This document shows, one piece after another, positions 24,568 to 45,152 of a stretch of DNA of 64,000 nt. Every line of letters starts with the position of its first letter. Within the stretch, counting starts at the first letter, position 1. The position numbers and the translations under genes were made by a program. The notes below the pieces were generated by a model. It made no database searches. It was not told the origin of the DNA and saw nothing but the letters and a program-made list of their open reading frames with translations. The DNA comes from Candidatus Poribacteria bacterium (GTDB lineage: Bacteria; Poribacteria; WGA-4E; JAJDTR01), in contig CBDCTK010000002.1 in NCBI GenBank assembly GCA_965222225.1, forward strand, positions 4,544,001 to 4,608,000, given 5' to 3'.

Positions 24568-24682
24568 GACGGGGGAGGCACGATACTCAGAGGGTGAAAT
24601 AACGTGGAGGCGCGAGATTCGGTATCGGTGTAAAATTCGATCCTGCGAGCTCAAAAGATTGACAGAGACCGCTGCTGCAGCT

Positions 24683-26280: not shown

Positions 26281-26360
26281 GGCGGGGCAAGAAGATCTCT
26301 ATCGCGGTCACTACAGGATCTTCTATCGCCTTCGCTATTCGCTCAGTTGATCCCCGGCTA
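26281..26360 (+). repeat. REP hairpin interrupted by 38-bp units
   Basis: GGCGGGGCAA, partial unit 26291-26314, full unit 26315-26352, then CCCGGCTA. Confidence 0.78.
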
Positions 26361-26380
26361 TTCACCACCTTTGCCCTTTA

Positions 26381-26618
26381 GAGCCTGATTGAATAATCGG
26401 TAGCAAAGCCATTTTTGGTCATTTGAAGACACGATTTTTCATGTTGTTATTGTTGCCTGCTACGTACCTGTGGGATCCCTACGAGATTTCTATCGCGGTG
26501 GGATCTTCTATCGCACTCGCTATCTGCTCGCTTGATCCTATTCGGTCACTTGATCACTCGTTATCCACTCGCTTGATCGCAGTGCGCACCCTACAAACTG
26601 TACTTTTCAAACAGGCTC
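26381..26618 (+). mobile_element. IS5-like MITE (238 bp) with triple-nested 38-bp units
   Basis: TIRs GAGCCTGATTGAA / TTCAAACAGGCTC; flanks TTA and TTG; nested units 26472-26578. Confidence 0.82.
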
Positions 26619-26622
26619 TTGA

Positions 26623-28746: not shown

Positions 28747-29375
28747 CTTGGTATTCCTTTTGAACGCAGCAAAGACAGAAGTTTTTGCGACAGTCTGTGT
28801 TAAACTCGTGCCATCGAGGTTAGAGAAAAAATTCAGTCTATAACAGTTTCGAGACAAAAAGAGATAGCAGCAGGGGCTGCTGCATTTCTGGTGGGGTAAT
28901 TGACAGGAGATATCGAGAGTTTTTTCGCAGAAGAAAGTGTTCTTAACCAACACTCACTATCATTCCCACTGTTAGAAAATATATTTCCGGAACAATTTCT
29001 AACTCCGTTTCTCAATCAGAGTCTCAATCTGGATAGCCAAAATCATAGCATGATTGCAAATACATTGAAACTGGACACGACAGAATGTAAAATGTCCAAC
29101 AAGCGTTCGCTTGATGAACGACTCCCGGAGATCTACTTCGCCCGCGACAAAATGCGGTTTACCCAGTCCAAAAATCATATACAGAAATCTAATCCCTTTT
29201 GCCCACCTTAATCCCCTGATGTCGAAGGTAGGCGTACACCGTCGATCTAGCAATCGACAGGAGCTTGTCGAGATGCTAATCGCGCTCACGTTCTTCCGGG
29301 CGGACTTTCGAAAAGATGAACGACGCGGGTCAACAACATTCTTGGTGCAATCTTGACTTTCTCGCTTGGCGGAAA

Positions 29376-30950
29376 TCATCCACCGTAGATGCTCTCCATC
29401 TGCCAGAGGTCGAGCGACACAAGCTCTGCGTCTCTGCCCTGCGCGCTAAAAGAGACGCCGGTGCTGTCCGGTCTGCCGGGGTAGACCCGCATGGCAACGC
29501 ATTGGCGACCGTTGACGAACACCTCGATTACGCTGCGGTCGATGAATACGTGCAGCTTGAGTGTCTCCTCGGGTCCCAATGCCACCGGGGCAGTCTCCGG
29601 CGCGCGGCACAGGGCATCCGGCAGGATCGATGAGCGTGAGGAGTCGATGCTTATAAGGCTGTCGCGAGAATCCGGTTGCCGCACAGGGTGCTTGAAGCCC
29701 CGTTCGCGGTAGAAAACGATACGGGTGTGCTCCTGGCGGTCCGGCGATCGCAGCACGTTGAGTTCCACCATCGGTGCTCCACAGGTGTCAATCTCCAGCT
29801 CGAGTTCGATGGCATTGCCTTCGATGCCGTCAAGCACCGTTTCGCAATTGGCAGGGATTGGTTGACGACCAACGCTCTTGCGAGTGCCCCGGAGCGAGGC
29901 GATATCGCCGGCGGGATCGATACCGAGTTCGTTATCGCCGATCAGTGTCAACCGCCGCGGCAGGCTCATGAGTTGACCCCACCCCTTTTTCGGCAGACCG
30001 GGATTCATGTTCCAAATACAGATGACGCCGCCTTTGCCGTCGGGCGTGGCGGACGGTGCATGCAGGCCTGACGGTTGTGCGGCGCCGAAGTTGAACTTGC
30101 CGTGGGCATTTGGATAAAACTTTGCACCTTCTGCGTCGTAGTCGCCGAGCAGGTACTGCGGACCGCTCATGTGGCTGAAGAAGAGCAGGATGTGCCGCTG
30201 GACGGAACCGCTACCGATCGGCCAGAAGTAGGGGCAGGCACCGTCGTCGCCATCAACTAAGCGGCTCTGGTCGTCGACAAATGGGTGCAGGTATTCCCAG
30301 TGCTCAAGGTCGTTGGAGCGTAGCACCGAGTCCATCGGATTCCAGGCGTCGCGTCCGTTGCATAGGGCGTAGTAGGTGTCGCCCTCCCGCCAAATGCAGG
30401 GATCGTGTACGCGGTATGGTAAAGCCGATCCGTCCGGCGCCAGCAGTGGCACGACAGGCCCTCCCGTCAGCTTTTTCCAGTTGAGCAACAGCGGATCGCT
30501 CGAAGTAGCTACCATCAAGCCCTGCTCGACGCCGTAGTACATGGCGATGACCCGATCTTCTTCGACCAGCGTGGTGCCGGAGAAGCAATGGCGCTCCGGA
30601 CATGGATGAATGGCGTACGGAAGGTCGCGCCAGTGAATCAGATCCGCACTCACCGCGTGTCCCCAGTGTACACGTTTGTCGCCGTCCGGCGGATTGCCCT
30701 GATAGAAGAGGTGCCAGTTTCCCTGCCAGTAGCAGAGGCCGTTGGAGTCGTTGTGATTCGCTTCGGGACTCACGAAGTGGTAGGTTGGTCGGTGAGGATC
30801 ACTGCTCAGAGCTGCCCGCGACTCGTGCATACGCGCCAGCAGCGGGTTCGCCGCCAGCTCCTTCTCCTGCGTTTCGAGCGTGTCGCCGAAGTTGTATTTC
30901 GGTGTGTCCGTAGTCGGAAAGTATTTCGGAGGCAGGTTGTTTATAGTCAT
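29376..30950 (-). CDS. Glycoside hydrolase family 32 protein
   Basis: RPTYHF, NDSNG, WHLFYQ, HWGHAVS, FSGT, HDP, MSLPR, FIDRSVIEVF. Confidence 0.9.
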   Translation of the reverse strand: MTINNLPPKYFPTTDTPKYNFGDTLETQEKELAANPLLARMHESRAALSSDPHRPTYHFVSPEANHNDSNGLCYWQGNWHLFYQGNPPDGDKRVHWGHAVSADLIHWRDLPYAIHPCPERHCFSGTTLVEEDRVIAMYYGVEQGLMVATSSDPLLLNWKKLTGGPVVPLLAPDGSALPYRVHDPCIWREGDTYYALCNGRDAWNPMDSVLRSNDLEHWEYLHPFVDDQSRLVDGDDGACPYFWPIGSGSVQRHILLFFSHMSGPQYLLGDYDAEGAKFYPNAHGKFNFGAAQPSGLHAPSATPDGKGGVICIWNMNPGLPKKGWGQLMSLPRRLTLIGDNELGIDPAGDIASLRGTRKSVGRQPIPANCETVLDGIEGNAIELELEIDTCGAPMVELNVLRSPDRQEHTRIVFYRERGFKHPVRQPDSRDSLISIDSSRSSILPDALCRAPETAPVALGPEETLKLHVFIDRSVIEVFVNGRQCVAMRVYPGRPDSTGVSFSAQGRDAELVSLDLWQMESIYGG

Positions 30951-31232
30951 ACTGTTTTCACCATTCCTTAAACCATCATATACGGGTCCGCGGCGCCGCG
31001 CAAACCGTCGGAGCCGTTAGCCAGAGGCAGATATATCTCAACGAGTTGGTTCTTTGTTTCAGCGATGATTTCTTGATTGTCTCAGTTTTGGCAATAACGA
31101 AAATTCGGCAGTTTTTGCTGCTTGCCATGGAAATTACGAAGGCTATTTTACCCGTTTTTCGCGTCCCGTTCAATACCAATCTCCCGGTTGAAGGGATTTG
31201 CGGAGTTCAGGTCGTACGCTGCCCTGCGTTTA

Positions 31233-31433
31233 GAGCCTGTTTGAATAAGCGGGAGCAAAGCCATTTTTGATCATTTGTAGGAAGTTTTTTCATGTTTTTA
31301 TTGTTGCCAGCTACGTACTGTGGGATCCCTATCGCACTCGTTATCCACTCGCTTGAGGGGATCTCTATCGCGCTCGTAATCCACTCGCTTGATCGCAGTG
31401 CACACCCTACAAATGTACTTTTCAAACAGGCTC
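31233..31433 (+). mobile_element. IS5-like MITE (201 bp), TTA target duplication
   Basis: Perfect 13-bp TIRs GAGCCTGTTTGAA / TTCAAACAGGCTC; TTA at 31230-31232 and 31434-31436; two 38-bp-family units at 31322-31394. Confidence 0.88.
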
Positions 31434-32834
31434 TTACTCATGGAAACTGAATGAGAAGATCTTTGATTCTCGCAGTTCGAACTTCAACTTAATCTCCCTG
31501 TCCTTTAGTCTATCCAACGCGAGTCCGGCTCTCCACGCTATCTTCGCGTCTGAAACGGTGGTTGTTACCAACTTCCCTTCAGCCACTCGTTTGTTGTCTT
31601 TGTCCAAGAGAGTGACCTTGACAAAGCCGGACGGCGCGACATCGGCGCTGATGCAGAGCGAATTGCCGACGATCGATACGGCTTTGGTCGTAAGTGCCCC
31701 GGTGCTGTTGCTTCCTCCGGCGATCTGTTCGTAGCCGGCAAAACCGTCGGGCCGAAACCGAGCCAGGGCAAAGTAGCCGTTGCGCCAGCCCATGAACCTA
31801 CCGTCGTTCGCACCGTAGTAAAGGAGAATCTCGTCTTCCATCACAATCGGGGTGGACGCAAAGATGCAGCCCCAGTCATAGTCGCCCATCACCGCGCCAT
31901 TCGGAATCAGCGGCTTGCCGGGCTGGATCCGATGCCATTGCTTGCTATCCGGGCTCCATGCCAATTCGCACCATTGCCTGCTCGCTTCGATGTCAAAGAG
32001 TCCTATCATGCCGAGGTAGACACCGGCGTGGGGGAGCACGATCAAATCATGGATCTGCATGCGCGGGTCAAGCCCTTCCATAACAGGCTCTGTTTTTGAC
32101 CATTTCAGAAAGCCCTCCGACTCGCTCCTTACCGCTTGCCGATGCCCCTGGTATCCGTAGCGGCCCGTGGTTTTCTCACCGCCCCAACTACGCGTGATAA
32201 GCACATACTTCCCAAGATCTTCGTCCCACCACACGCTCGGGTGCGTGTCGCCAATATCTATGGGTCCGACATCGTGCTTGTTGCCCCAATGAATTCCATT
32301 CGGGGAGAACCAAACCGCACTCTTTTGCCTTTCCGGTTTAACTGCCTTGTAACGCCTTTGCGGATCGGTTTCATGCGGATCTTTCATAACCGCTAAACGG
32401 TAGTGTTCTATGACAATATTGTTCCTCTTGCTGCCGTTGAAGTCTATCAAACCCAAGTCAGGCTTTTCCCAATTAATCCCGTCCCGAGAAGTCGCATAGC
32501 ACACGCCGGACCTACGTTTGCCCTCTGTCCAGTTGACCCATGCCCGTTTTTCGGACGGAATGCCCTCACCCGGGAGATCTCCTTTAGATTCGGACCTGGT
32601 GAATATGCTATACCAGCACTTGAAAATCTTCTCCTCTTGGTCATAGATGGCACTACAGTAGGGATTGTCGTATCGGGGCTCCCACGGCTTGTCTTCCTTG
32701 AAGAGCGGATTGTTCCTGTCTTTGTGCGCGACACCAACAGTCAGCTCCACGTTGTTTTCCTCTTCGATGATTCGCGAATCAAGAACGAGGTACCTGTCAC
32801 GCGCTTTGGTGTTGTCACTTGCTGCACTGGCCAT
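31434..32834 (-). CDS. Five-bladed beta-propeller glycoside hydrolase-like protein
   Basis: CYATSRDGINWEKP, SPNGIHW, ELAWSPD, LLYYGA, FRPDGFAG. Confidence 0.7.
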   Translation of the reverse strand: MASAASDNTKARDRYLVLDSRIIEEENNVELTVGVAHKDRNNPLFKEDKPWEPRYDNPYCSAIYDQEEKIFKCWYSIFTRSESKGDLPGEGIPSEKRAWVNWTEGKRRSGVCYATSRDGINWEKPDLGLIDFNGSKRNNIVIEHYRLAVMKDPHETDPQRRYKAVKPERQKSAVWFSPNGIHWGNKHDVGPIDIGDTHPSVWWDEDLGKYVLITRSWGGEKTTGRYGYQGHRQAVRSESEGFLKWSKTEPVMEGLDPRMQIHDLIVLPHAGVYLGMIGLFDIEASRQWCELAWSPDSKQWHRIQPGKPLIPNGAVMGDYDWGCIFASTPIVMEDEILLYYGANDGRFMGWRNGYFALARFRPDGFAGYEQIAGGSNSTGALTTKAVSIVGNSLCISADVAPSGFVKVTLLDKDNKRVAEGKLVTTTVSDAKIAWRAGLALDRLKDREIKLKFELRESKIFSFSFHE

Positions 32835-32945
32835 GGTCATTCCTTCCATCGGGGTTGTATTGTCTCCTGACTATTACACGAATCACCACTGTCTCGGATT
32901 CATGCTTGATTATCCCGCTGAATCGCAACTAGGTGTTGTCATCTA

Positions 32946-34541
32946 TCATCTCGGTTGCTCTGCCCGGTATCGATAGACTTGCAGGTTTTCTGTGGAATGG
33001 ATCACTTCGTAATCGGTGTCCAGACTATCTGTGATCTCCTGAACATCCAGGCCGTGAGTCCGCATAATATCATCACCGCAGGCGAAAGGATCCGATTTGT
33101 CCAGTTTCCATGCCACGATGTAATCAATCACGCCTGAATGTTGGGTGTTCCAATCGAAAGGGAAGTAGTTGAATTTGCATTCGTAATTGCTCAGACTAAT
33201 ACAGCCATTATTCACGCAGTAATAGTTGATGGCATGAGCAAACGGTTCCACAAATTCATCGTGGGTAAATGGCGGCGTGTCCTTGACGTTGGGAGAGGCA
33301 TTTGAGGCGATTCCCAAGACCACTTTGTTCTTTTCAATCAGCTCAATACCTGATGTATACTCTTTCATACTTTTGTCCAGAGGATAATAGTAGCGGCAGC
33401 TTATAGAAAGACGGGTAATGGAAAGGATAATCAAGACAACGACAATCCCGCGCTTGATATATTTGTGGTAATCCTCACTGAGAAACGCCAAAAGCATCGG
33501 GAAAATAAACAGATTCACCCGGTCGTTAATCCAACCGCCACTCGCCATCCCCCCGGGCATAATGAAGTAGAGAACGGTGAAAACGCCGAAAATCAGCAGG
33601 AACTGGTTGTCCTGGCTCATAATCCTTCTTTGGCGGATTCTTTTATATAAAGTGACTGCGAATAACAGCCCCAGCATAATCGCCATAATGCGTGTGGGGA
33701 TCAGGTGAGCGTCGGTAAAAGACATCAACGACTTGGTGCTGAGAAAATAATCCCACGCTTTCCAGTCGCCGAAACGCTCCCATCTCAGGTCCAATTGTCC
33801 ATTGTCTGCAACGACGTTTGTGAGTAGATAATTTGCCATGATGAAGTAGAGCGGCAGCATACAGAGCAGAAGTGCCATAACCCGTTTTGGTCTGCGATAA
33901 AAAGATGTGATAGACAGGAGAGTTAGCGAAAGCATGAGAAGGAGATAAGAGAGGATGTGACTGAAGTAGATCAGGATGCACAACAGATTGAGAATCGCTA
34001 TCTTATTCAGGCTCATATCTTCTTTGTGCTTTATGAAATAGCCCAACGCGAAGAAAAACAGTGGCACAGAAAGGGCAAAGCTGTAGAATCCCATGTGGAG
34101 CAGGTAGTGATCGCTGAACAGAAATCCCAAATAACCGTATAGATTCTTACCCTCGTGTACCGCGCCAAGAAAATAGAAAAGTGACAATGGTAACAAGCCG
34201 ATGATTGCGCTCAAAAGGATTTTTTCCGCTATTAGAGGAGGGAAAATCTTCATCAGCAGCGACATGCAGATGTGTGCGAGCCAGTTGGGGAACAGCGTAA
34301 GATTAAGTTTGTAATATTCCCGCAAGCGAGTTGAATCCTCATCATGGAATACACTCAACACATACGAATTATAGACGTGGGCTGGCCCGTCCTGGGTTGG
34401 GAAGTACTTAAATACCCACAGCGGCGAGATATGCAGGATGATGAGCAAAGAGATAAGAATTCTTTTTCTTCGTACCGAGAGGTCTGTCTCCTTCCAACGT
34501 CCAAGAAGAGATTGCAGACTTGATACTGCTGATTTTAACAT
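32946..34541 (-). CDS. Polytopic membrane protein (GT-C-like), paralog of 26623..28746
   Basis: Shares FPTQDGPAH, LNLTLFPNW, LLHMGFY, GGWINDR and NYE motifs; lacks the C-terminal extra domain. Confidence 0.7.
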   Translation of the reverse strand: MLKSAVSSLQSLLGRWKETDLSVRRKRILISLLIILHISPLWVFKYFPTQDGPAHVYNSYVLSVFHDEDSTRLREYYKLNLTLFPNWLAHICMSLLMKIFPPLIAEKILLSAIIGLLPLSLFYFLGAVHEGKNLYGYLGFLFSDHYLLHMGFYSFALSVPLFFFALGYFIKHKEDMSLNKIAILNLLCILIYFSHILSYLLLMLSLTLLSITSFYRRPKRVMALLLCMLPLYFIMANYLLTNVVADNGQLDLRWERFGDWKAWDYFLSTKSLMSFTDAHLIPTRIMAIMLGLLFAVTLYKRIRQRRIMSQDNQFLLIFGVFTVLYFIMPGGMASGGWINDRVNLFIFPMLLAFLSEDYHKYIKRGIVVVLIILSITRLSISCRYYYPLDKSMKEYTSGIELIEKNKVVLGIASNASPNVKDTPPFTHDEFVEPFAHAINYYCVNNGCISLSNYECKFNYFPFDWNTQHSGVIDYIVAWKLDKSDPFACGDDIMRTHGLDVQEITDSLDTDYEVIHSTENLQVYRYRAEQPR

Positions 34542-34665
34542 TCGTGCATTTCCTTAATTGCTCAAATATATACGAACCTTTCGGTTGGCAAAGTAGAACG
34601 TGCCGCTGGCTTTGTTCAGAATGTGCTAAAAGCACCTTTCGTGGCGATACAGTATTAGATTGAAT

Positions 34666-34750
34666 TAGCCAAAGTTGCCACTTTTGTAGCACGATTTGTC
34701 AGATTGTACATGTGATGCGCAAACTGACAGTTTGCGCTACGAATCATATC
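34666..34750 (+). repeat. Dispersed repeat with REP-like hairpin (inverted copy at about 39875-39958)
   Basis: AAGTTGCCACTTTTGTAGCACGAT...GCGCAAACTGACAGTTTGCGCTAC. Confidence 0.7.
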
Positions 34751-34860
34751 TTCTTGTCCAATCACTGCCTAGGTTGGGGACATCTGACACACTCCTAGAG
34801 AATTAATTCGTTGCTCTCAAATAGTCTTGTCCCGACAGTAAGGAACACAAGGGGGAAAGC

Positions 34861-36268
34861 TTATTGATGCACCTCGAATATGCTGTAGCCGTATGGCGGG
34901 AGCGGCAACTCCAGCGTTTTCTCCACCTTTTGATGTTTCCCGCTAAAGATATCGACCAACTCCGTCTCCCAATCGAGATAAACCTCTATCATCGCATCTT
35001 CGCTCTGGAAGTTAAGCACTACGAGCAGCATCTCATTATCTGTAGTTGATGCGCGAAGGAATGCGTAGTATCGACCATCGTTGTTCGTAGGCAACCGGCC
35101 TCTGGAACCCTTGGCGCAAAGTGTCGGATACTTCTGCCTTGCCTTCATAATCTCTCTGTGCTGTGATAGGAACCACGTCGACCACATAGGCTCATAGATT
35201 CGGTCGCTGGCTACGAACAACTCACCGACTGTCGCCAGCGCCACCACTTCCAACAGCATCTGCGCCGGAGAAAGGTTTCCCGTCGTGTCTCCCATCACCC
35301 GCAACGCGGGGCCGCCCCCATCGCCCGAGCCCCATGACCCTCTCACCCTAGCCCAGGTTATCCCACCGGCTTTGACGACGCGATCCCCGTACAACCGCAG
35401 TTTAATCTCAATTCCGGTGGGATTGCCGCTTTCTAAGGCTATCCTGATGGCTTGCTCCCAGCGCCGACCTGTGGCGATTCCGTAGTCCTGTACGCTGTCA
35501 TAGTGCCCGTCGGTAATCCATGAGACCGGGTCACTGCGGATTCCGGCTCCCTCGGGAAGTACAAACGTATTTGGATATTCGTGAACCACGTCGGTAATCG
35601 TGCGGTTGTTCACTTTCCAAGTACAGTTGGTGTATTCGGGCACGGCGTCAACCATTATGCCGTCTATCCCTCTCTCCATCCAAAAGCGAACAACCTTCCG
35701 GCATTCCTCCTGCCACGATTCCTCTCCATAATTGAACTGAGGCAAATCCCCATCGCCGGACTTGCCGAACCATCTGACCCAAAAGTATTTCCCTGCTCTC
35801 TCGCTGAACCGCCAACTGCCCTCGACATCATTCAGGAAGAAAGGCAATTGGCTTCGATCCAGTTCGGCAGACTTGGTGTCACTCCACACGAACCAGCGAG
35901 ACTCCGGGCTCTCCACGCCGGCTTTCACATCGTCACAGGCATGTATAAAGGGAGGAAACTCCATGGCGGCGTAGCCGAGGTTGAGAAAAGCAATGACGGC
36001 AATGTCTCTGTCGTGACACGCCGTAACGAGTTCATCAAAGTCATCTAATGGATCCAAGGGCGGGATCGACGGCATAGTAGTCGAGGACATCCAGTCCTGA
36101 ATACTGGACGCCTCCATGGTACGGGATCCCCATGCAAATAGCGTTAAAGCCCCACTCGTTGACCTCGTCGACCATTCCGATGATCTTTTTGAGCGTTCGG
36201 CCCTTGTGTTTGGGACTGGTAAAATGCATTAGTGTAGCGTTTTCCCACCAACGAGGTTTCAAACTCAT
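34861..36268 (-). pseudogene. Frameshifted GH13-like glycoside hydrolase
   Basis: ORF 36041..36268 (...YYAVDPALGS) joins ORF 34861..36117 (DDFDELV...) through one extra base near 36048; paralog of 24683..26035. Confidence 0.8.
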
Positions 36269-36399
36269 ATGCGTACTGCCTTCCTAACGGGTATTCAAAT
36301 GTGCGCTGTTCGTGGATTCCCCAAACGAATCCTCGTATCGGGATTCATAACGTGGCACTCAGTAGACATTGTTCTCTTCGCATTGGCGTTTTGCTTTAC

Positions 36400-36720
36400 G
36401 GGCAAAAGTGCCAAAAAATTCTCCCGCGCTGTTTCCATTGGTAACAATCAGGAATTCCTCTCTGGTGAAAAGGTTGAACAGGCGATTGCCGACAGCTTCC
36501 GAAGGCTTATCCAAAATGCGATTATCTGCTGGAACTATCTGTATCTCCCTCAGAAGATTACCGAAGCCGAGGGCGAAGAAAAGCGAAAGGAATTACTCAC
36601 AGCGGTCCGGAATGGCTCCATGGCGGCGTGGGGCACGTCAATCCGCATGGCGCGTATGATTTCTCAGATGAAAAACTATCGGATTCGGTCGGATGATACG
36701 CACCTAAGATCCTGGCAAGA
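36400..36720 (+). mobile_element. Tn3-family transposase C-terminal remnant
   Basis: KFSRAVSIGNNQEF...RLIQNAIICWNYLYL...NGSMAAW, then INPHGAYDFS in a shifted frame. Confidence 0.75.
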
Positions 36721-36933
36721 AAGACGTATTCTAGGGGAGGATGTGTGGCCAAATAGCAGGTTCTAAGGGGTGGGTCAAAATCCTATGGCAGTTTTCGTGC
36801 ATTTGTTTAACTTGACCGAACATTGTCTGGAGTGATTCATTGAGTCGTCATACTTACACTCAACGACGAAATCCATTTCTTCCACCTGGCGTTTTGCGGG
36901 ATTTGAGGTAATCGCTTTTTCGTCGTCACAGGG

Positions 36934-36964
36934 AAAGAAAAAGGAAGGGCAATTGTCCTTCCTT
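36934..36964 (-). terminator. Intrinsic terminator
   Basis: AAGGAAGGGCA/TGTCCTTCCTT stem with a T-rich tail on the minus strand, just after the stop at 36979. Confidence 0.65.
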
Positions 36965-36978
36965 GTTTTGAGAGACTA

Positions 36979-37797
36979 TCAATCCCCTTTGATGCTGCCC
37001 CAGGTTGTGGAGAGTTTACCGGCAGGTTCAACGGCGAGCAAGTGCATCTCTTCGGTAACCCAGATATTGATGAACTCTGAACACACGGCTCCTCTGTCAC
37101 CCATGTCCTCTATTTTTGATTGACTGATGATGGCTAAGTAACCATTCGTCTTCGTGTTGTGAAGAACTACGGGGTCAACAAAGTTTCCCCTCTCTGCGAA
37201 TATCTCGGCAGCTTCCCAGGGAGCTACAAGGGCATTCAGATTAACAGGTCTGTTGGAAAGATACTTGTCCCCAAGACTCGGCATGAACTTTTTACCCGCA
37301 GCCGTCGCCTTCATTAAGGTAGCATCTCGCCCCACGATAATGTTCTCCGCAAGGTCCAGAATGTTTGCGGCGCCGGCATCCATGTTTCTTTCTTTTTCCC
37401 CGTTCTCGTGGGTTGCCCAGGCAAACCAGTCGGCGACGTTGATAAACATGTTGCCGTCGTCGAGCCATTTTTCAGCGCGAGAGCCGTCCGGCTTCTTGTT
37501 CAAGGTAGGATATAAGGTACTCGGTATCTGCCCGTTTAGCCAGATGATATCGAGATGCCCATCACCCGTGTTCGCATCTGCCCATCGCCCAAATGCATTA
37601 AGATCTTTGTCATCGAACTTCTGGATATCGTCGAACAAAGTTCCGGTATTCTTGATCATCTTCTCAACGTCATTGGTCATCGTTTTCTGATCATACGTGC
37701 CCGGTTGAAACCCCCCGACGTAGAACGCGATGTCGGAAGCTATAGCGATTGGTCCAAAAGCAAATACAATGATGACTGCCGACAATAGTTTTTCCAT
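36979..37797 (-). CDS. Secreted hypothetical protein with TWG C-terminal tail
   Basis: Signal peptide (AIA-S); DIIWLNGQIPS, WLDDGNMFINVADWF; ends AVEPAGKLSTTWGSIKGD. Confidence 0.8.
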   Translation of the reverse strand: MEKLLSAVIIVFAFGPIAIASDIAFYVGGFQPGTYDQKTMTNDVEKMIKNTGTLFDDIQKFDDKDLNAFGRWADANTGDGHLDIIWLNGQIPSTLYPTLNKKPDGSRAEKWLDDGNMFINVADWFAWATHENGEKERNMDAGAANILDLAENIIVGRDATLMKATAAGKKFMPSLGDKYLSNRPVNLNALVAPWEAAEIFAERGNFVDPVVLHNTKTNGYLAIISQSKIEDMGDRGAVCSEFINIWVTEEMHLLAVEPAGKLSTTWGSIKGD

Positions 37798-37916
37798 TTT
37801 ATTCACCGTCCTGATTCGACTGTGGCGAAACTCTGTTGAAACCGGAACTAAGTGATTCATTCGCAAAGTAAATAATGCTTACGAGACTGGCACAAGAAAC
37901 CCGTTCTACCACGCCG

Positions 37917-37943
37917 GTCGGTGCGGTTTCTAACCGCACCGAC
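37917..37943. repeat. Perfect 12-bp hairpin
   Basis: GTCGGTGCGGTT-TCT-AACCGCACCGAC. Confidence 0.75.
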
Positions 37944-37992
37944 AACCGACGCTTAATCATATTTTCTTAGAAAGTAAACCGCTAAGTCTACG

Positions 37993-38110
37993 CTAACGCA
38001 GGAATTAAGCATAAGCGGGGATTAACACCAAAAACCGGATCACATTGCTGATACGGCATCTGCAGCGATTCCGGATTCGGTCCGCTCAATTACGCTTAAT
38101 TCCTCGTCAG
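37993..38110. repeat. MITE-like fold-back element
   Basis: Perfect core AGGAATTAAGC/GCTTAATTCCT with imperfect extensions and inner stems. Confidence 0.6.
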
Positions 38111-38169
38111 TATTGGGTTTAACTCGATTTTGGCGATTAATTTGACAAAGTAAAACTAACTTGTGGTGT

Positions 38170-39063
38170 TTAGTACCTTGTCTTTATCTCGCCCCAGGTT
38201 GCAGAGAGTTTATCAGCAGGGTCAACAGAAGTGGTGAGCCCTCCTCCAAAAACCCAGTTATTGATGAACTCCGAACACATGGCACCTCTGTCACCCGCGT
38301 TACCTATTTTTGATTGACTTATGATAGCTAAGCAACCATTTGTCTCCGTGTTGCAAGCAACTACGGGGTCAGCCAGAACCCCCGCAGGTAGAACCATATC
38401 CTGTACATCGCCTACGTCGGCAACGCCTTCACTCGCACTCACGGCGAATACTTCGGTAACTTCCCAAGGAGGTGTAAAGGCTTCAAGATAGACAGGTCTG
38501 TTGGACAGGAGATTATCGTCAAGACTCGGCATATACTCCCTACCTGCAGCCGTCCTCGACATCACGGTGTCAGCTGCCCCCAGGATAATCGTGTGGTCCT
38601 GGTCTAGTATGAAACCTGCGGCAACATGGGTGTTTCTTTCTTTTTCCCCGTTTTCATGGGTTGCCCAAGCGAACCAGTCGGCGACGTTGATAAACATGTT
38701 TCCGTCGTCGAGCCATCTTTCAGCGACCGAGCCATCCTCCTCCTCGTTAAAGGTTGGATACAAGCTACTCGGTATCTGTCCGTTGAGCCAGATAATGTCG
38801 AGATCGCCGTCACCGATATTTGCCTCTGCCCATTCCCCAAGTCCATCAATATCCCCATCATCAAACGACTGGACATCGTTGAACCTGCCTGCAGTTTCCT
38901 GCATCATCGTTTCAACGTCAAAGGCCATTGTTTCGTCGTCATACGAGCCCCCCTGAAACTCCCCGACGTAGTAGGCTATATCGGAAGCGATAGCCATCGT
39001 ACCAAATGCGAAGACCAAGACGACCGTCATAATAAGGCAAGTAAGAGCCTTTTTGGTGTACAT
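38170..39063 (-). CDS. Secreted hypothetical protein, tandem paralog with TWG tail
   Basis: RBS AGGAGG; colinear with 36979..37797; ends SVDPADKLSATWGEIKTRY. Confidence 0.85.
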   Translation of the reverse strand: MYTKKALTCLIMTVVLVFAFGTMAIASDIAYYVGEFQGGSYDDETMAFDVETMMQETAGRFNDVQSFDDGDIDGLGEWAEANIGDGDLDIIWLNGQIPSSLYPTFNEEEDGSVAERWLDDGNMFINVADWFAWATHENGEKERNTHVAAGFILDQDHTIILGAADTVMSRTAAGREYMPSLDDNLLSNRPVYLEAFTPPWEVTEVFAVSASEGVADVGDVQDMVLPAGVLADPVVACNTETNGCLAIISQSKIGNAGDRGAMCSEFINNWVFGGGLTTSVDPADKLSATWGEIKTRY

Positions 39064-39680
39064 TACTGTTTTCCTCCTATATCTTCAGAACTTTCTCAGA
39101 AAATCTGGAAAGCGTTATTGAGTTGAGTATTGCAGCGATTTCTGCTTTACTCTTTTGACAGTTTCGTAGCCAACTGCTGTAATAGTCTATTATGGATGCG
39201 TATATCTGTCAATAAAAAAATGCACGCTGTTTCCCCATAAACGTGCACCTTAAATCCTTCATACCCGGTAACCACGCGGGTTTCAGCACTCACAATACAG
39301 ATAAAACTCATAGAACTCCTAAATCCGCCCTGTTGCCCCATGTAATTATGAAGGAAACTCGACAGTCCAAACGACGATAGCCGTTGTCTAGGTAAACTCT
39401 AATTTTTCTCAGGCTGGGTTCATCACTAGCAGACAGGCCCTATACTCCGTTACCTTGGACGTCAATGCAGAACGCATTATCACCATTATCAATCCCTTTG
39501 TCCAATCACTGATGGCCAACGCCTTCGATTCCTGAATCGCTATCTGATTCATGATTCGTCTCCCCGGCTTTCAACGGATCACTGACCACTTGTTATCTCT
39601 AAATACCGATAAGTGGGATCATACTAATACCTTGTCTCTAAATTTTCAGTGCATAAATAGCGTCAATCATGTGGTGTCAA

Positions 39681-39737
39681 GGCGGGGCAAGGGAATCTCT
39701 ATCGCCCTCGCTGTCCGCTCGCTTGATCTCCGCCTAC
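39681..39737 (+). repeat. REP hairpin with one clean 38-bp insertion
   Basis: GGCGGGGCAA, unit 39691-39728, then TCCGCCTAC. Confidence 0.82.
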
Positions 39738-39800
39738 GGAGAAAGAGAATGATAGGATTAAAGCATCACATTCACTGTTATTCAAGCGAACTGGTAAAAG

Positions 39801-39958
39801 TAACCCAAGTTGCCACTTACAAGATTTTAGGCGTGTAGACACTGTTCTTAATTGAGAATTATTCATTATTCACGGATATTTCGTAGCGCAAACTGTCAGT
39901 TCGCGCACTCACAGGCACAATCTAACAGATCGTGCTACAAAGGTGACAACTTAGGTTA
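39801..39958. mobile_element. Putative MITE with about 17-bp imperfect TIRs
   Basis: TAACCCAAGTTGCCACT versus reverse-complemented right end TAACCTAAGTTGTCACC; right half repeated at 34666. Confidence 0.55.
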
Positions 39959-40308
39959 AGTAAGAATGCCGAATATAGAGCCGATTCCTTTGACGCTTTT
40001 CAATTGCAAACCTATACAAATATGTGGCAATATATAGGTATTGCCAATAGGTGGAAAATTTAACTATGGATAAACGCAAGCGATTTACGCTCAAGCAACT
40101 CGACACAGGGGCATCACCGCAAATTACGGGGAACTATCGGAGACTTCATGGACGCTCGGTCGTCCAATGGACGTCATAATTCGTTAATTGAGGATGATTT
40201 GCCACGCTTCGAAGACCGACACCGTCAAGCCATCGAGTTTCTCCACAGACATTTCGTGTTCAAGGCTGGCTATATTCACTTTTGACACGAATCTCCATCT
40301 GAGGTCTT

Positions 40309-41181
40309 ATGACATATCAGGAAATCAAAGAATCTTACGAGCAGAACGGTTACGTTGCCGTTGAAAACATCATTGATGAATCCGAACTGGATCCCATGCG
40401 GAATTTCATCAAGGCTAGGGTAGACGAATATGCCAGTGAACAGTACGCGGATGGCAAACTTTCGTCGCTTTATGAGGAGGAATCCTTCACCCGCCGTTAT
40501 GCCGCTATCAGTGAAGAGCAGGGACTTGTGCCTCGCGGATGGTCCTTGGGCTCCTTTGGCCGCGAATTCTTCAATCTTTACAACCTGCCGGGGATCCTTC
40601 ACGTGGTTGGCCTTCTCCTTGGACCTGAGGTCTCGAATATTGGGGGACCAGCGCTACGGACAAAACTACCCGGCAGCGTAATTACATCGTTTCCATGGCA
40701 CCAAGACAGTCAGTATGTCGACCAGTCCACAATCGGGAAGAAGGAGAGGCGCACGGAACATCTGCATATGGTCACCGTATGGGTGCCGCTTGTGGAGGCG
40801 ACGGTCGAAAACGGCTGCTGCTGGGTCATTCCGGGGAGTCACCGCTGGGGCTTGCTTGACGGTGCGCGCGGCGAGGACTCAAACGTCCAAATGGAGGAGG
40901 ATGTGGAGGCGCGTGGCATCCCCGTTCCGGTTCCGCTCAAAACAGGAGGCGCCATATTTTTCTCGAACCTGTGCGTGCATTGCAGCAAACTGAATTCCAC
41001 GAAGGACTCTCGATGGAGCATCGACTTTCGATATTTTCCCACGCCGGATCGAGCAGACCTGAACCCGGAACAATGGAAAGCGGCTGACTTCGTGAAAAAC
41101 AAGACGCGGCCGCTCGTTGTGCTTTCCAAGGGGCCTAAAACCAGCTTTGAGGAATGGGAAGCAGTGCATCGCAGAAAGTAA
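40309..41181 (+). CDS. PhyH-family dioxygenase (HxD type)
   Basis: YEQNGY, FPWHQD, TVWVPL, ENGCCWVIPGSH, HCS, RWSIDFRY. Confidence 0.92.
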   Translation: MTYQEIKESYEQNGYVAVENIIDESELDPMRNFIKARVDEYASEQYADGKLSSLYEEESFTRRYAAISEEQGLVPRGWSLGSFGREFFNLYNLPGILHVVGLLLGPEVSNIGGPALRTKLPGSVITSFPWHQDSQYVDQSTIGKKERRTEHLHMVTVWVPLVEATVENGCCWVIPGSHRWGLLDGARGEDSNVQMEEDVEARGIPVPVPLKTGGAIFFSNLCVHCSKLNSTKDSRWSIDFRYFPTPDRADLNPEQWKAADFVKNKTRPLVVLSKGPKTSFEEWEAVHRRK

Positions 41182-41336
41182 CCTCAGTATGAGAGTTGTG
41201 TGCCTGCTCGTGCTGATGGTATGTGAGAATTTCACCAAATAGAAACAACGACAGATGAATTTGAGTTCCACGGCAGGCACTCCACGCCCGAAGCTAATCA
41301 CACCTACTCTTGACACGAGCCACCATCTCAAATATT

Positions 41337-42209
41337 ATGACAGATCAAGATGTCAAAGAATCGTACGAACAGAACGGATTCGTTGTCGTTGAAAATATTA
41401 TTGATGAATCCGATCTAGATCCCATGCGAGGTTTCATCAAGGCTAGGGTAGACGCATATGCCCATGAACAATACGCCGAGGGTAAACTTTCGTCTCTCTA
41501 TGAACACGAGCCCTTCACGCGTCGCTATGCAGCTATTTGCGAGGACCAAAGAATTGAGCCGCGCGGTTGGGGGCATGGCATTTTCGGTCGAGAATTCTAC
41601 GATCTCTATTCCCTCCCCAGCGTCATTCGCGTCATCAATCTCTTCTTGGGCTCTGAAGTCTCGAGCGACGGGCGCCCGGGCCTGAGGACAAAACTCCCCG
41701 ACAGCGAGATAACGTCGTTTCCGTGGCACCAGGACAGTCAATACTACGACCAGCCGACAATCGGGAAAAAAGAGCGGCATACTGAACCTCTGCACGTGGT
41801 CAGCGTGTGGCTGCCGCTCGTGGAGGCAACGGTCGAAAACGGCTGCCTTTGGTTCATTCCGGGGAGTCACCGCTGGGGCTTGCTTGACGGCGCGCGCCGC
41901 GAGGACTCAAACGTCCGGATGGAGGAGGATGTGGAGGTACGGGGCACACCCGTTCCGGTTTCCCTCAAAACAGGAGGCGCCATATTTTTCTCGAATCTGT
42001 GCGTACATTGCAGTAAACTGAACACCACGAAGGACGTTCGATGGAGCATCGACTTCCGCTATTTTCCCACGCCGCATCGCGCAGACCTGAACCCTGAACA
42101 ACGAAAGGCGACTGACTACATGAAAAACAGGACGTGGCCACTCGTCGTGCTTTCCAAGGGACCTAAAACCAGCTTTGAAGCATGGGAAGCGGAGTACCAC
42201 AGGAAGTAA
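41337..42209 (+). CDS. PhyH-family dioxygenase, recent tandem duplicate
   Basis: Highly similar to 40309..41181, including upstream TTGACACGA. Confidence 0.92.
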   Translation: MTDQDVKESYEQNGFVVVENIIDESDLDPMRGFIKARVDAYAHEQYAEGKLSSLYEHEPFTRRYAAICEDQRIEPRGWGHGIFGREFYDLYSLPSVIRVINLFLGSEVSSDGRPGLRTKLPDSEITSFPWHQDSQYYDQPTIGKKERHTEPLHVVSVWLPLVEATVENGCLWFIPGSHRWGLLDGARREDSNVRMEEDVEVRGTPVPVSLKTGGAIFFSNLCVHCSKLNTTKDVRWSIDFRYFPTPHRADLNPEQRKATDYMKNRTWPLVVLSKGPKTSFEAWEAEYHRK

Positions 42210-42324
42210 CCGCATTCCGACGGTGATGCATCCACGACTGTTAAGCGTTCGCGTAGGCTTGGACAAGGGAAGCTACAACCAAGAAACGTGGCGGTGGGTG
42301 CAGTTGTAATCTTGAGGTGTCGTT

Positions 42325-43161
42325 ATGGATGATTGTGAACGTTATCTTTTTGACCTAAGCGGTTTTCTGCATATCCCCGGTCTGCTATCGGCGACCGAAG
42401 CGCAACGGCTCTATGAAGCGGCGGTAGAGCTTGAGGAACATGCGCTTGCCTGCCAACACGATTCTCCCAAATGGCGCGCGGTTTGGGGACCCGAGTATTG
42501 GCAGAATCAACAATATGCCTATTTTGCGCAAATGGGCGGTCCCGCCGCCGCCAAGACGCTGATGATTGAGGATTTCTGGCTGTATCCCGAAGCGTTCGAC
42601 ATGCTAATTGGTCACGATCGCACCATGTCGTATGTGCGGCGCATCATCCAGAACGCTATCAGCATCAACAACTCTGAATTGAGGATAAGGTACACCAACA
42701 ACGCAAGTGGAATGCACATGGGTCATCCACATGGACGGGGGCAGAAATACCGTTACGAGGTCATTGATGGCGAGATTCAATCTACAATGGTTCGGATGAT
42801 TTATTTCCTACACGACGTTTCCATGGACGAAGGCCCCACCTGCTTCGTTCCCGGATCGCATCGTAACGAATTTCCCGTACCGGTTAACACTGCGTCCGTG
42901 GAGGATGAGCCGGGGGTTGTCGGGATACCTGTCAAAGCGGGTGACGGTATACTGTTTACGGAGGCCTGCCGGCACGGCGGGTTTGCCAACCGCACTGAAA
43001 AGACACGCTACACGTTGCACGTCGGCTACGGTCCGCACTTCCTGAAATCGCAGAACATTTCGACCATGGATGAGCCGGTGCATGTCACGGATGAACTGCT
43101 CGGTCGATTGTCCGATACCCAGCGGCAACTGCTTGTGCCCACCGAACGAATTGCTCTTTAA
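42325..43161 (+). CDS. PhyH-family oxygenase (HxG type)
   Basis: YLFDLSGF, MHMG, GPTCFVPGSH, AGDGILFTEACRHG. Confidence 0.88.
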   Translation: MDDCERYLFDLSGFLHIPGLLSATEAQRLYEAAVELEEHALACQHDSPKWRAVWGPEYWQNQQYAYFAQMGGPAAAKTLMIEDFWLYPEAFDMLIGHDRTMSYVRRIIQNAISINNSELRIRYTNNASGMHMGHPHGRGQKYRYEVIDGEIQSTMVRMIYFLHDVSMDEGPTCFVPGSHRNEFPVPVNTASVEDEPGVVGIPVKAGDGILFTEACRHGGFANRTEKTRYTLHVGYGPHFLKSQNISTMDEPVHVTDELLGRLSDTQRQLLVPTERIAL

Positions 43162-43269
43162 CTGTCCAACTCAGACGCGCGAACGTGACCTGTCCCAAAT
43201 TACATTGACATGAGTTACTCCGGTATCCCTTGGACAAGTTACGAGACGGCGGAGCGTGCCTACTAGTCT

Positions 43270-43312
43270 AAGCTATCTATCGCACTCGCTAATCGCTCGT
43301 TTAATCTCCTAC
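43270..43312 (+). repeat. Degenerate 38-bp unit abutting REP end
   Basis: CTATCGCACTCGCTAATCGCTCGTTTAATC followed by TCCTAC. Confidence 0.65.
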
Positions 43313-43501
43313 AGTAGGTTTGTTGTAACAATCTTCAACAATCAAGTCGCTAATTTCCCTCCTTAATATGTGTAAATGTGAATGGAAATGACTACAGCAG
43401 CCGATAACAGTTCCGTACGCGCTGCGGCGTATTCTTGGGTTCGGAAGCAAATACACGTTCACAGATACCAACTTCAGTAGAGTTTTCCTCATGGAGGCCT
43501 T

Positions 43502-44244
43502 ATGTCGATTGAATCGCCAACCGACTTTGGATGCATGCCACGCGTCGGAAAAACTGTCGCAGCGGCGTTGAAGGCAATGTCGGACTACGTCCGTCCGGGG
43601 GTTTTGACCGCAGAAGTAGATTGTGTTGGCGCAGAAGTTCTCAGGCAGCACGGGGCGCGGTCGGCACCGCAAATTATCTACGGTTTTCCAGGGGTCAATC
43701 TAATCAGTGTAAACGACGAAGTAGTCCACGGTATTCCCGGTAATCGTATGTTACAGCCCGGAGATCTGGTAAGCCTTGATGTTACCGCGGAGTTGGATGG
43801 ATACATTGCGGACGCGGCTACAACCATTCCCCTCGCGCCGTATTCCAGAAAGACTGCGCAATTGTGTCAGTGTGCGAGAACAGCTTTTGAAAAAGCGACC
43901 ATGGTTGCCCGCGCTGGTAGGCCTATCCATTGTATTGGAAGGCCGTTGAGCAAGAAGTGAGGAAAGGTGGATTTGCCGTGATTCAGGAGTTAGGAGGGCA
44001 TGGTGTTGGTAGACATATTCATGAGAATCCGTTCGTTTCCAACGTCTTCCAACCAACTGATGCGCAGCCGTTGACCGATGGCCTCGTCCTTACAATCGAA
44101 CCGCTGATTGCTGAACGATCGGCGAAGATCTTTGAGGACGACGACGGATGGACTATTCGGACAGCCGACGGTGGGCTATCTGCTCATTATGAACACACCG
44201 TTGTGATTAGGGATGGTAAGCCAATTTTACTTACAGCGGCATAG
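43502..44244 (+). pseudogene. map: Type I methionine aminopeptidase, frameshifted
   Basis: SVNDEVVHGIP and SLDV...YIAD in one frame; GHGVG.HIHE, TIEP and SAHYEHT in the next. One base missing near 43938 (GGA AGG versus expected GGA AAG GCC). Confidence 0.85.
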
Positions 44245-44351
44245 TCGTCTTGCCCTTCGACAATGTTACGACAGGCTCAAGGGACGCAAAACAATGAAAC
44301 GCTAGATACAACGAATCAAAGACTGGATAGCTAGTGCGAAGGTGTTCTAAA

Positions 44352-45152
44352 ATGGAACGCACATCTCCGCGACCAAGACAGTTCTGGGACGATCACGCAA
44401 CTCGGTTCAAGAATCGGAGTTTGGCGGAAGCCTATAACCTTCGTCCACCTTATCCGAATGAGATGTATCGGATTCTTCTTAACCTACTCGGGGATAAGCG
44501 CGGGAGAGTTTTGGATGTCGGTTGTGGGCAGGGTAAGATAGCGCGCACACTTGTTGAGCACGTAGAGCGTGTCGATGCAGTTGATTTCTCGCAGGAGATG
44601 ATTCGCGTGGGGAAGTCGATCGTCAACGGGAACCACCCTAACCTTCAATGGATTCACGGTAGAGTTGAAGAGGTGCAGTTGTATCCGCCGTACGATATGA
44701 TTATGGCCGGATCGAGTATCCATTGGATGGAGTGGAGCGTGGTTTTTCCGAGGTTCAAGGAAGTGTTGACAGCAGATGGATATCTCGCCATCTTTGATGG
44801 AGATCGTCCTATAGCGTCGCCTTGGCATGACGCAGAACTTTCACTAATCCGCAAGTATTCCACCACCAAGCACTATGAAGAAATGGATCTGATTAAAGAA
44901 CTTGTGGATAGAGGGCACCTCGAACTGATTGGGGACAAATGGACACAACCGGTTGGCTATTCTCAACGGCTCGCAGACTATGTTGAATCCTTTCACTCAA
45001 GGGAAAGCCTGTGGAAGGAACACATGGGCGAAGAAAATGTCAGGGCTTTCGATACTGAGCTATCGCATATCTTGTTAGACTTCGCCGATGATAAGGGATT
45101 CCTTAGTTTCCAAATAGGAACAAGAGTCACTTGGGGAAAGCCACTGGGATAG
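44352..45152 (+). CDS. Class I SAM-dependent methyltransferase
   Basis: RPPYP, VLDVGCGQG, AVDFSQEM, SSIHW. Confidence 0.9.
   Translation: MERTSPRPRQFWDDHATRFKNRSLAEAYNLRPPYPNEMYRILLNLLGDKRGRVLDVGCGQGKIARTLVEHVERVDAVDFSQEMIRVGKSIVNGNHPNLQWIHGRVEEVQLYPPYDMIMAGSSIHWMEWSVVFPRFKEVLTADGYLAIFDGDRPIASPWHDAELSLIRKYSTTKHYEEMDLIKELVDRGHLELIGDKWTQPVGYSQRLADYVESFHSRESLWKEHMGEENVRAFDTELSHILLDFADDKGFLSFQIGTRVTWGKPLG

Follow-up and report, generated by a model that had tools for sequence, protein, structure and literature searches.

A 64-kb stretch of a Candidatus Poribacteria genome (hereafter the window, C2:4544001-4608000 in an assembly of 5.70 Mb and two contigs that we code G000) carries, at position 39681, a 38-nt sequence lodged inside a hairpin of the type known as repetitive extragenic palindromes (REPs), and the locus raises the question of whether so short a unit is inserted into REPs, always in the same direction, and by what agency. 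A sequence-only reading of the window had proposed that the unit targets the loops of GTAG-footed REPs with fixed polarity and that strand-specific cutting at REPs guides its insertion. The observation is real and it generalises: the association with REPs in a fixed polarity is supported, and the definition of the target needs widening. At the locus itself (plus strand), the 5' arm and loop remnant of a REP of family A, GGCGGGGCAAG (GGCGGGGCAA-G, 39681-39691), an arm also present in empty REPs, is followed by the unit GGAATCTCTATCGCCCTCGCTGTCCGCTCGCTTGATC (39692-39728), which was recognised by a position-weight scan and by stem covariation and whose hairpin is read on the minus strand. This unit comprises an H module, GGAATCTCTATCGC (39692-39705), and an MT module, CCTCGCTGTCCGCTCGCTTGATC (39706-39728), and is succeeded by the 3' arm of the REP with its CTAC foot, TCCGCCTAC (39729-39737, one arm mismatch).

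The unit is non-coding, about 38 nt long, and built from two modules, H (GGGATCTCTATCGC) and MT (NNTCNNTATYCNNTCNNTTGATC); its consensus, (G)GGGATCTCTATCGC ACTCGCTATTC ACTCGCTTGATC, amounts to three similar submotifs of about 12 nt (756 copies with the exact spacing YTATCGC-N17-TTGATC). A whole-unit search matched only the query copy in the window (1 match at no more than 3 mismatches). Because copies are too divergent for exact or near-exact searching, we used a position-weight scan, which called 1,125 full units of at least 20 bits in the 5.70-Mb genome and none in a shuffled genome; the unit also supplies the genome's most frequent 10- to 14-mers. Joining the hits gave 1,547 arrays (505 H-MT, 113 H-H-MT, 95 H-MT-MT, 288 lone H, 285 lone MT, and rarer forms), of which the 848 that start with H and end with T are here called complete. 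On C2, 1,226 of 1,543 arrays (79%) are intergenic, though by a crude open reading frame map 81% of the contig is coding.

The polarity claimed for the window holds throughout the genome. CTAC lies within 12 nt after the TTGATC end in 248 of the 848 complete arrays, most often 4-5 nt beyond the unit (168 arrays) or at 12 nt (44), and the opposite arrangement, GTAG within 12 nt before the H end, occurs in 9; GTAG after the TTGATC end was found in 16 and CTAC before the H end in 50. The same was seen in 100 loci (797 kb) from other genomes of the genus, where CTAC is within 12 nt 3' of 52 of 224 units and GTAG 5' of 2. The host hairpins are true REPs, in that structures with 6-bp arms, a loop of 3-9 nt and a CTAC foot number 376, versus 73 in a shuffled genome. 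Six non-palindromic REP families are found both empty and filled, and their perfect-armed copies hold 76 units in the forward orientation and 1 in reverse. Named by their arms, these families are CGCACC (83 empty, 26 forward, 1 reverse), CCCACC (82, 16, 0), CCCCGC (15, 16, 0), CCCGAC (9, 7, 0), CCCAAC (2, 9, 0) and CAACCC (14, 2, 0).

A palindromic, double-footed family, GTAGGGAACGCAGATCTGCGTTCCCTAC (CGTTCC), with GATC in its loop, was also observed, with 31 copies empty, none forward and 1 reverse. Unlike such near-unfilled palindromic families, the single-footed families have 16-82% of their copies filled.

Approximately 118 arrays lie inside perfect-armed REP loops, which we estimate to make up about 0.3% of intergenic DNA, and the genome-wide enrichment that had been anticipated is therefore roughly fifty-fold. 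A more general test for stems formed by the flanks gave exact runs of at least 5 nt in 135 of 848 arrays against 83 of 848 with shuffled pairing; this signal is real but modest because the arms are short and their boundaries shift, and the family-wise count is clearer. Of the proposal that the loop of a GTAG-REP is the target, the part that stands is that REPs are strongly enriched, but they make up only about a third of targets. The further suggestion that insertion inactivates REPs is unsupported: in family B the arms are perfect in 15 of 18 filled and 62 of 73 empty copies, and in family A, where filled copies are mildly worse, in 12 of 33 and 14 of 21.

Empty copies allow the insertion point to be read directly. 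The sequence-only reading had reconstructed an empty site from which 2 nt were missing; the genome, however, has real empty REP A sites (GCGGGGCAAGATGCCCCGCCTAC, 15 with perfect arms), compared with which the filled sites lack 3-4 nt (ATG or ATGC). Thus in REP A an empty GCGGGGcaagatgCCCCGCctac stands beside a filled GCGGGGcaag[gggatc...ttgat]CCCCGCctac, in the CGCACC family an empty GGTGCGcagtgCGCACCctac beside a filled GGTGCGcag[gggatc...tttgat]CGCACCctac, and in the CCCGAC family an empty GTCGGGctagaagCCCGACctac beside a filled GTCGGGctggaag[ggatc...ttgat]CCCGACctac, which places the unit at the junction of loop and 3' arm. To widen this comparison we queried the genome with the fused 30-nt flanks of every complete array, which yielded an empty-like paralogue for 290 of the 848. 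Extra nucleotides at the junction, 1-5 of them (7 in one case), were present in 257 of these 290 empty copies (counts 53, 72, 68, 42, 21 and 1) and absent from the other 33; the commonest extra letters are G, C, ATGC, GC, TGC and CGC. At filled sites, the tetramers that span the junction (the last C of the unit and the three bases after it) are CGCA, CGCT, CCCC or CCCA at 8-10% each, versus 0.3-0.5% in the genome. A YGC-(C/G)-C context at the 5' edge of a C-rich hairpin arm describes the target better than a loop does.

Hosts other than REPs fit this description. There are 77 arrays that abut what we call M hairpins, in the order ACCTGT, unit, CCCCGCTGGGGC (CC(A/C)C(T/G)CTGGGGC); these are non-GTAG hairpins, their empty form is ACCTGTCGCCCCGCTGGGGC, and the opposite arrangement was found 0 times. 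About 48 arrays are followed by an inverted H module, that is, units were inserted at the H/M boundary of an inverted unit. The remaining class, "other", comprises 648 of 1,121 terminal modules and has no recognisable host.

Within the window, all three loci that had been singled out proved to be arm-insert-arm builds. The build of 39681 recurs on the plus strand at 26281, with the REP A arm GGCGGGGCAAG (GGCGGGGCAA-G, 26281-26291), an H-partial-H-MT array (26292-26352) and a degenerate arm and foot, CCCGGCTAT (26353-26361). On the minus strand, the third consists of the REP arm GGCAGGGCAAG (GGCAGGGCAA-G, 4399-4389), a unit (4388-4352), a partial T module, TTGCTTGATC (4351-4342), and the 3' arm and foot CCTGCCTAC (4341-4333). 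Six further loci are on the plus strand: H, H-MT-MT and a partial module, then a degenerate REP half with foot, GCGGTGTACACTCGAC (48-165); an H-H-MT-MT array (4581-4667), an MT-like module (4668-4686) and a REP half, GGAGTGCGCACCCTAC (4687-4702), in which the array occupies the ACCTGT site of a repeat resembling miniature inverted-repeat transposable elements (MITEs); H-H-MT and MT arrays (26483-26578) followed by a REP B half, GCAGTGCGCACCCTAC (26579-26594), inside a MITE-like repeat; H-MT-H-MT (31322-31394) followed by GCAGTGCACACCCTAC (31395-31410), inside a copy of that same repeat; a partial unit (43276-43312) with a truncated H, an MT at 43284-43306 and a TCCTAC foot directly after; and a REP B/C, GGCTGGTG ... 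GCACCCTAC (62718-62809), with two units, one degenerate from 62726 and one H-MT at 62764-62800. At all nine loci (12 array rows in the scan) the TTGATC end points toward a CTAC-type foot, as had been claimed, and at two the foot is degenerate (CTCGAC after 48-137, and CTAT at 26353-26361).

Other repeats of the window are interleaved with these loci. The MITE-like repeat is about 240 bp long, has the inverted ends AGAGCCTGATTGAA / TTCAAACAGGCTCT, lies at about 26380-26619 with copies near 4480-4740 and 31230-31440, and carries an M hairpin site and a REP B that are both often filled by units; its end motif has about 77-94 occurrences in the genome. A second dispersed repeat, at 39798-39967, contains a REPIN-like doublet (GTAGCGCAAACTGTCAGTTCGCGC ... 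GTGCTAC); its copy at the corresponding spacer in G003 and G007 (L017, L019) is filled by a unit, and the window copy is empty.

Is the present abundance the product of many insertions or of one? Terminal MT modules can be typed by eight variable stem letters and one loop letter, and the 1,121 modules fall into 445 types. Most hosts hold many of them: 22 types among 32 modules in REP A, 19 among 20 in REP C, 15 among 15 in REP E and 38 among 47 in REP F. The 493 single units comprise 407 distinct 34-nt cores, of which 45 recur, and for 24 of these 45 at least one pair has unrelated flanks on both sides; one core was found at two M sites, in a GCTACTAC-footed REP and beside a REP B foot. An orthologous site directly downstream of an IS200-like (tnpA-like) gene provides the clearest case. 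In three species, G000, G001 and G005, it reads CACCTGT[unit]CCCGCTGGGGC, with the arm CCTCTCTGGGGC in G005, and it is empty (CACCTGTCGCCCCTCTGGGGC / CACCTGTCGCCCC..GGGGC) in G002, G009, G004 and five genomes of other genera. Because the site is empty in congeners and in other genera, and because G005 and G002 are nearly identical for more than 100 nt beyond it, the empty state is ancestral and the unit was gained. Identical units in unrelated hosts, together with this filled and empty orthologous site, show that the unit has been inserted many times and independently of its hosts, and the loci do not descend from one ancestral insertion.

These data bear on the alternative that the unit is a passenger, which entered a few hosts long ago and has since multiplied with REPs and with the repeats of about 175 and 240 bp, by slippage and gene conversion, its polarity being inherited. 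Several observations weigh against repeated insertion and for such a history. A single type dominates REP B (27 of 82) and the M site (20 of 64), which indicates co-amplification with the host. The REP and unit of 39681 lie inside a larger dispersed repeat of about 175 bp (39622-39800, plus strand) that is absent from the orthologous spacer of G009; since the upstream flanks of 39681 and 26281 are moreover homologous, these two are not fully independent sites, though their unit content (a single unit versus H-partial-H-MT) and their stem letters differ. Three window loci are copies of one MITE-like repeat, the same composite, downstream sequence included, is present in another genus (L123), and the arrays with unequal modules, H-H-MT and H-MT-MT, resemble local duplication. 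However, units fill no fewer than seven unrelated host contexts, all of which also have many empty copies, and stem types are numerous in most hosts; gene conversion is unable to place a unit at a unit-free site; and neither the identical cores in unrelated flanks nor the unit-sized gain between otherwise nearly identical flanks is what a passenger would leave. We consider it unlikely that this alternative accounts for the whole. Two comparisons were set aside: only 4 paired copies of the 175-bp repeat were available, which is uninformative on the unit, and in the orthologous spacer at 39.7 kb the species are too diverged, with different repeats filling the spacers, and what was gained there is the 175-bp repeat and not the unit alone.

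The unit also has an internal structure. Among 650 distinct units, the top four pairs by mutual information are the nested pairs 15-31, 16-30, 19-27 and 20-26 (0-based, 38-mer), at which Watson-Crick pairing reaches 72, 91, 94 and 83% (a range of 72-94%). Mismatches are one-sided: A·C on the TTGATC strand, which is G·T on the opposite strand, accounts for 22.5, 3.5, 3.1 and 13.5% at the four pairs, and G·T on the TTGATC strand for about 1%. Since G/A and C/T variation both occur at unpaired positions, a one-sided mutation bias is unlikely as the cause. Between the two 2-bp stems an invariant TC/TC forms tandem G·A on the opposite strand, giving a hairpin of 2 bp, tandem G·A, 2 bp and a GRATA loop, with a possible outer ATC/GAT stem. 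The strand that carries the wobble pairs is thus the structured one, GATCAA-NN-GA-NN-GRATA-NN-GA-NN-GCGATAGAGATCCC, and it is the strand on which the host REP has its 5' GTAG. In 150 distinct units from other Poribacteria genomes, 97.3% of cells form standard pairs and double changes occur at all four variable pairs (218 cells), a value reached in 0 of 500 shuffles and by no slid control (48.6% at most); the wobble asymmetry was reproduced in the 100 loci from other genomes of the genus. Such pairing is not what neutral decay in place, as a passenger would undergo, is expected to leave. No covariation was seen between the unit ends and the flanks, and an outer stem GGGATC/GATCCC, between the unit start and the flank, was dropped since it does not covary.

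Compensatory change of this kind could instead be maintained for the host. On this account selection keeps the hairpin, either in RNA (for stability, or as a tandem-G·A protein-binding motif) or in DNA (as phased sites of about 12 bp, with two GATC per unit), and it would explain compensatory changes with strand-specific wobble, the conservation of the tandem G·A and the loop, the intergenic location of 79% of arrays and the retention of the unit across nine species of the genus. Yet a motif in mRNA should be oriented with respect to genes, and between tandem gene pairs 375 arrays are co-oriented and 459 opposite; Rfam 15 gave no match over the window at the gathering threshold, nor over 26200-26700 at E up to 1; copy number spreads threefold among species; and selfish DNA typically behaves as the unit does in entering other repeats and its own copies. 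We therefore judge a host function very unlikely as the explanation.

Structure on one strand also admits an RNA intermediate, in which the GAUCAA...GAUCCC strand is transcribed, folds (hence the G·U that is tolerated), and is copied back by a reverse transcriptase into a gapped or single-stranded DNA hairpin. Wobble is tolerated on one strand only, and 387 of 623 units fold to the hairpin as RNA. But single-stranded DNA likewise tolerates G·T better than any other mismatch, neither a promoter nor a poly-A-like feature was seen, and no reverse transcriptase is linked to the unit, although none was sought; we know of no precedent for a bacterial element of about 38 nt that moves through RNA. 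Of the accounts considered here, we give this one the least credence.

The distribution of the unit over the two strands points to a replication or single-stranded-DNA process rather than to transcription. After exclusion of 363 arrays in regions of weak skew, 1,180 arrays with an absolute skew of at least 0.01 remain, and in 807 of them the TTGATC strand is the one that is G-rich locally. Empty REPs, scored by their CTAC strand, share this bias (118 of 162), and genes show it less (1,764 of 3,147). The GC skew of C2 is not a simple two-arm pattern: its cumulative minimum is at 2.54 Mb and its maximum at 0.83 Mb, with several sign changes, which points to rearrangements or assembly joins.

The unit is a feature of one lineage. 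In a species-representative collection there are at least 100 matching stretches, and all listed ones come from metagenome-assembled genomes of Candidatus Poribacteria, which also rules out the cyanobacterial affiliation that GCGATCGC-like motifs had suggested. Among 41 related genomes, a strict unit pattern was found in 10 of 10 genomes of the genus (124-410 matches each, 178 in G000). A sister genus, represented by one genome, has a single match, and four genomes from a genus of another family have 4-9 each; the remaining 26 genomes gave none, and a control pattern gave 0 everywhere. In the low-copy genomes of these two other genera the unit again lies in hairpins of REP A or E type, with a CTAC foot at 16 of 26 strict units, and one locus (L145) has tandem REP arrays with filled members next to empty ones.

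We also compared short-read contigs on 24500-44499 from three probable DNA runs and one RNA run (X3, X4, X8, X15) of other samples in which the organism is present. They end at or near units, and one X4 contig covers 36128-39748, including the unit at 39692. Contig ends fall, for example, at 26292, 31356, 39711 and 39748. No clean unit-sized omission is listed among these contigs, whose joints link different repeat copies or enclose unknown content; they show neither polymorphism nor its absence, and are uninformative on transcription.

Which enzyme might move the unit? The sequence-only reading had pointed to RAYT nucleases, and a search for their genes gave 7 RAYT-type matches in the genome; PF01797 has five, of which by motif and model one is IS200-like and the others are RAYT-like. 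The best RAYT, C2:3088913-3089326 (133.9 bits, cut-off 80), is flanked by GTAGGAGCGATCTCC-type REPs, and a Y1 HUH gene between its cognate REPs has the organisation of a REPtron. According to the relevant passages of PMC3333891, RAYTs bind the GTAG strand of REPs in single-stranded form, depend on mismatches in the stem, and cleave and rejoin DNA to either side of the REP, which makes them reasonable candidates. With 65.8 bits on NF033573 and the Y motif YIKNQEAHH, the IS200-like gene bears what PMC6006769 gives as the signature of subclass 1.2, a subclass recorded there as having no REP. Mobilisation by a RAYT or another Y1 HUH nuclease is at this stage a plausible hypothesis. That a RAYT guides the insertion, as had been proposed, can at present only be inferred, without specific support, and the co-occurrence of RAYTs and units is not specific: RAYT-model matches are present in 31 of 41 related genomes, including, where units occur, 9 of 9 in genus g1 and 4 of 4 in g4.

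The IS200-like gene (G000:C2:3080258-3080728, L001/L147; orthologues L148-L160) is flanked by inverted small hairpins in every genus examined, which is a REPtron-like arrangement. Upstream these are GCCCCnnnGGGGC-GACAGGTG and downstream CACCTGTC-GCCCCnnnGGGGC, often in tandem copies, and they are the M hairpins. The flanking hairpin varies by genus, being GACATGTG in g6 and GCTCC..GGAGC in G015, G035 and G036.

An abundant insertion sequence (IS) of 1,252 bp was considered as the mobiliser and rejected, as it is DDE-type, duplicates AT-rich targets and shows no link to units. It has 46 full copies, including G000:C2:469138-470389, and encodes a 284-aa transposase with a zinc-ribbon-like N-terminal region; we take it to be IS1595-like.

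Considering all of these results, the explanation that we favour, with a little more confidence than doubt, is a non-autonomous unit of about 38 nt that has been inserted repeatedly, predicted to move as a single strand with its enzyme supplied in trans. A protein that recognises the imperfect hairpin of the unit would provide the activity, the likeliest being a Y1 HUH nuclease of the genome, with candidates either of RAYT type or the IS200-like subclass 1.2 gene flanked by M hairpins. Fixed orientation would follow if a single strand is the one read in donor and target alike. The H-H-MT and H-MT-MT arrays probably arose by local slippage among the three similar submotifs, and part of the copy number probably reflects hitch-hiking with host REPs and MITE-like repeats as these multiply. 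A more specific proposal is possible but, in our view, doubtful: that hairpin repeats have a hyperparasite in the unit, a 38-nt "nano-transposon" made of one imperfect hairpin with short flanks, copied as single-stranded DNA by a domesticated Y1 HUH nuclease and pasted site- and orientation-specifically into REP and REPtron hairpins where the C-rich arm has its 5' edge.

A number of points count against movement of the unit as a single strand. With one hairpin, and without terminal inverted repeats or target duplication, the unit fits no worked-out transposition scheme. A recognisable foot stands beside only about a third of arrays, and junction positions, which depend on the module boundaries chosen, may be off by 1-3 nt. 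The structure is supported by covariation but only weakly by thermodynamics: the mean hairpin energy is -5.2 kcal/mol versus -4.8 in shuffles with RNA parameters, and DNA parameters do no better than shuffles. If the G-rich strand is, as usual, the lagging-strand template, the structured strand would lie mostly on the other template, opposite to IS608-type elements. Among the candidates compared, no enzyme is tied to the unit. The best RAYT, the only full-length one above the cut-off, has an in-frame TAG, with intact counterparts in congeners, and is either a pseudogene or a sequencing or strain variant. RAYT-model matches occur also in 7 of 7 genomes of g6 and 8 of 10 of g3, in which the strict unit pattern was not found, and the IS200-like gene is present in 25 of 41 genomes, again including 7 of 7 of g6; G008, which has the most strict units (410), has a best RAYT-model match of only 47.6 bits.

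Should the nano-transposon proposal be true, the unit would be the smallest targeted mobile DNA known outside cyanobacteria and the first parasite of the REP-RAYT system, and it would offer a natural minimal substrate for programmable single-strand insertion. REPs and RAYTs are among the least understood repeat systems of bacteria, with respect both to how REPs move and to what other substrates their nucleases have. To these the unit adds a second, much smaller element that lands on REP-type hairpins in strict orientation and shows compensatory evolution on the strand that RAYTs read, and thus a concrete substrate for asking whether short DNA can be pasted into hairpins by Y1 HUH enzymes. The concept of very small mobile repeats is thereby carried beyond the Nostocaceae to an uncultured phylum of sponge symbionts, in one genome of which nested layers of such repeats make up about 1% of the DNA. 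A practical caution is that short-read assemblies of these symbionts break at units, leaving contig ends at unit arrays.

In comparing the unit with known systems we searched the literature accessible to us and found no description of it and no paper on REPs or MITEs in Poribacteria; supplementary files were outside the scope of this search, and those of PMC6006769 and PMC3333891 may list REPs bearing on subclass 1.2. The small dispersed repeats SDR1-8 of cyanobacteria (Nostocaceae) are, like the unit, very short, non-coding and dispersed, lack a transposase, have filled and empty sites that speak for mobility, and nest in short repeats. Elhai et al. reportedly described, in 2008, SDRs of the Nostocaceae with hairpin-forming members and nesting. 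The unit differs in belonging to Poribacteria, in its length (38 versus 21-27 nt), in its three submotifs of about 12 nt and in its oriented REP-type targets. HIP1 is an insertion site of SDR5, and no SDR-like repeat was found outside the Nostocaceae, according to passages of PMC5861425 (passages on SDRs are also in PMC3116915).

The hosts of the unit conform to REPs and to bacterial interspersed mosaic elements (BIMEs), being imperfect palindromes with a GTAG/CTAC foot in hundreds of copies, in a genome with REP-flanked RAYT genes, as in systems treated in parts of PMC3333891, PMC3116915 and PMC6006769. As in BIMEs, the loci are mosaics of REP halves and short motifs whose number varies by locus. 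The unit itself is not a REP: its consensus has neither GTAG nor CTAC, and therefore no foot of its own, it has no long palindrome, and its hosts comprise several REP families as well as sites that are not REPs. The unit lies within a single REP hairpin, unlike BIME linkers, which separate one REP from the next, and we know of no stem covariation in BIME linker motifs. REPs are also the landing sites of ISPpu9, ISPpu10, ISPa11, ISPsy8, ISRm22 and others (Tobes and Pareja 2006, PMC1525189, in part). REP-targeting IS, IS1397 among them, have these landing sites in common with the unit, but they are kilobase-sized and encode a transposase, and the unit is 38 nt and encodes nothing.

With the IS200/IS605 family the unit shares imperfect hairpins on one strand, the lack of terminal inverted repeats and of target duplication, and a short specific sequence beside the insertion. 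IS200/IS605 elements require distinct subterminal hairpins at their left and right ends and insert 3' of a fixed tetra- or pentanucleotide with no target base lost. The unit, with a single hairpin, loses 1-5 nt of its target, although a preferred junction context exists. The family has a replication-strand bias, as given in part of PMC3333891, and that of the unit would be opposite if the G-rich strand is the lagging-strand template.

In its intergenic location and its ordered modules of variable number (H(n)-MT(n)), the unit resembles BOX elements and MITEs. The pneumococcal BOX is a modular repeat, boxA-boxB(n)-boxC, and MITEs have terminal inverted repeats and target duplications. The unit is much shorter, is nested in repeats with fixed polarity, and lacks both of these MITE features: its ends share only GATC, and filled sites lose 1-5 nt with none duplicated. 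Cyanobacterial small dispersed repeats and REP/BIME mosaics are the closest known systems. Among very small non-autonomous dispersed repeats, what is new here is the class of target combined with a covarying single-strand hairpin, and the unit would rank among the smallest apparently mobile DNA elements of bacteria.

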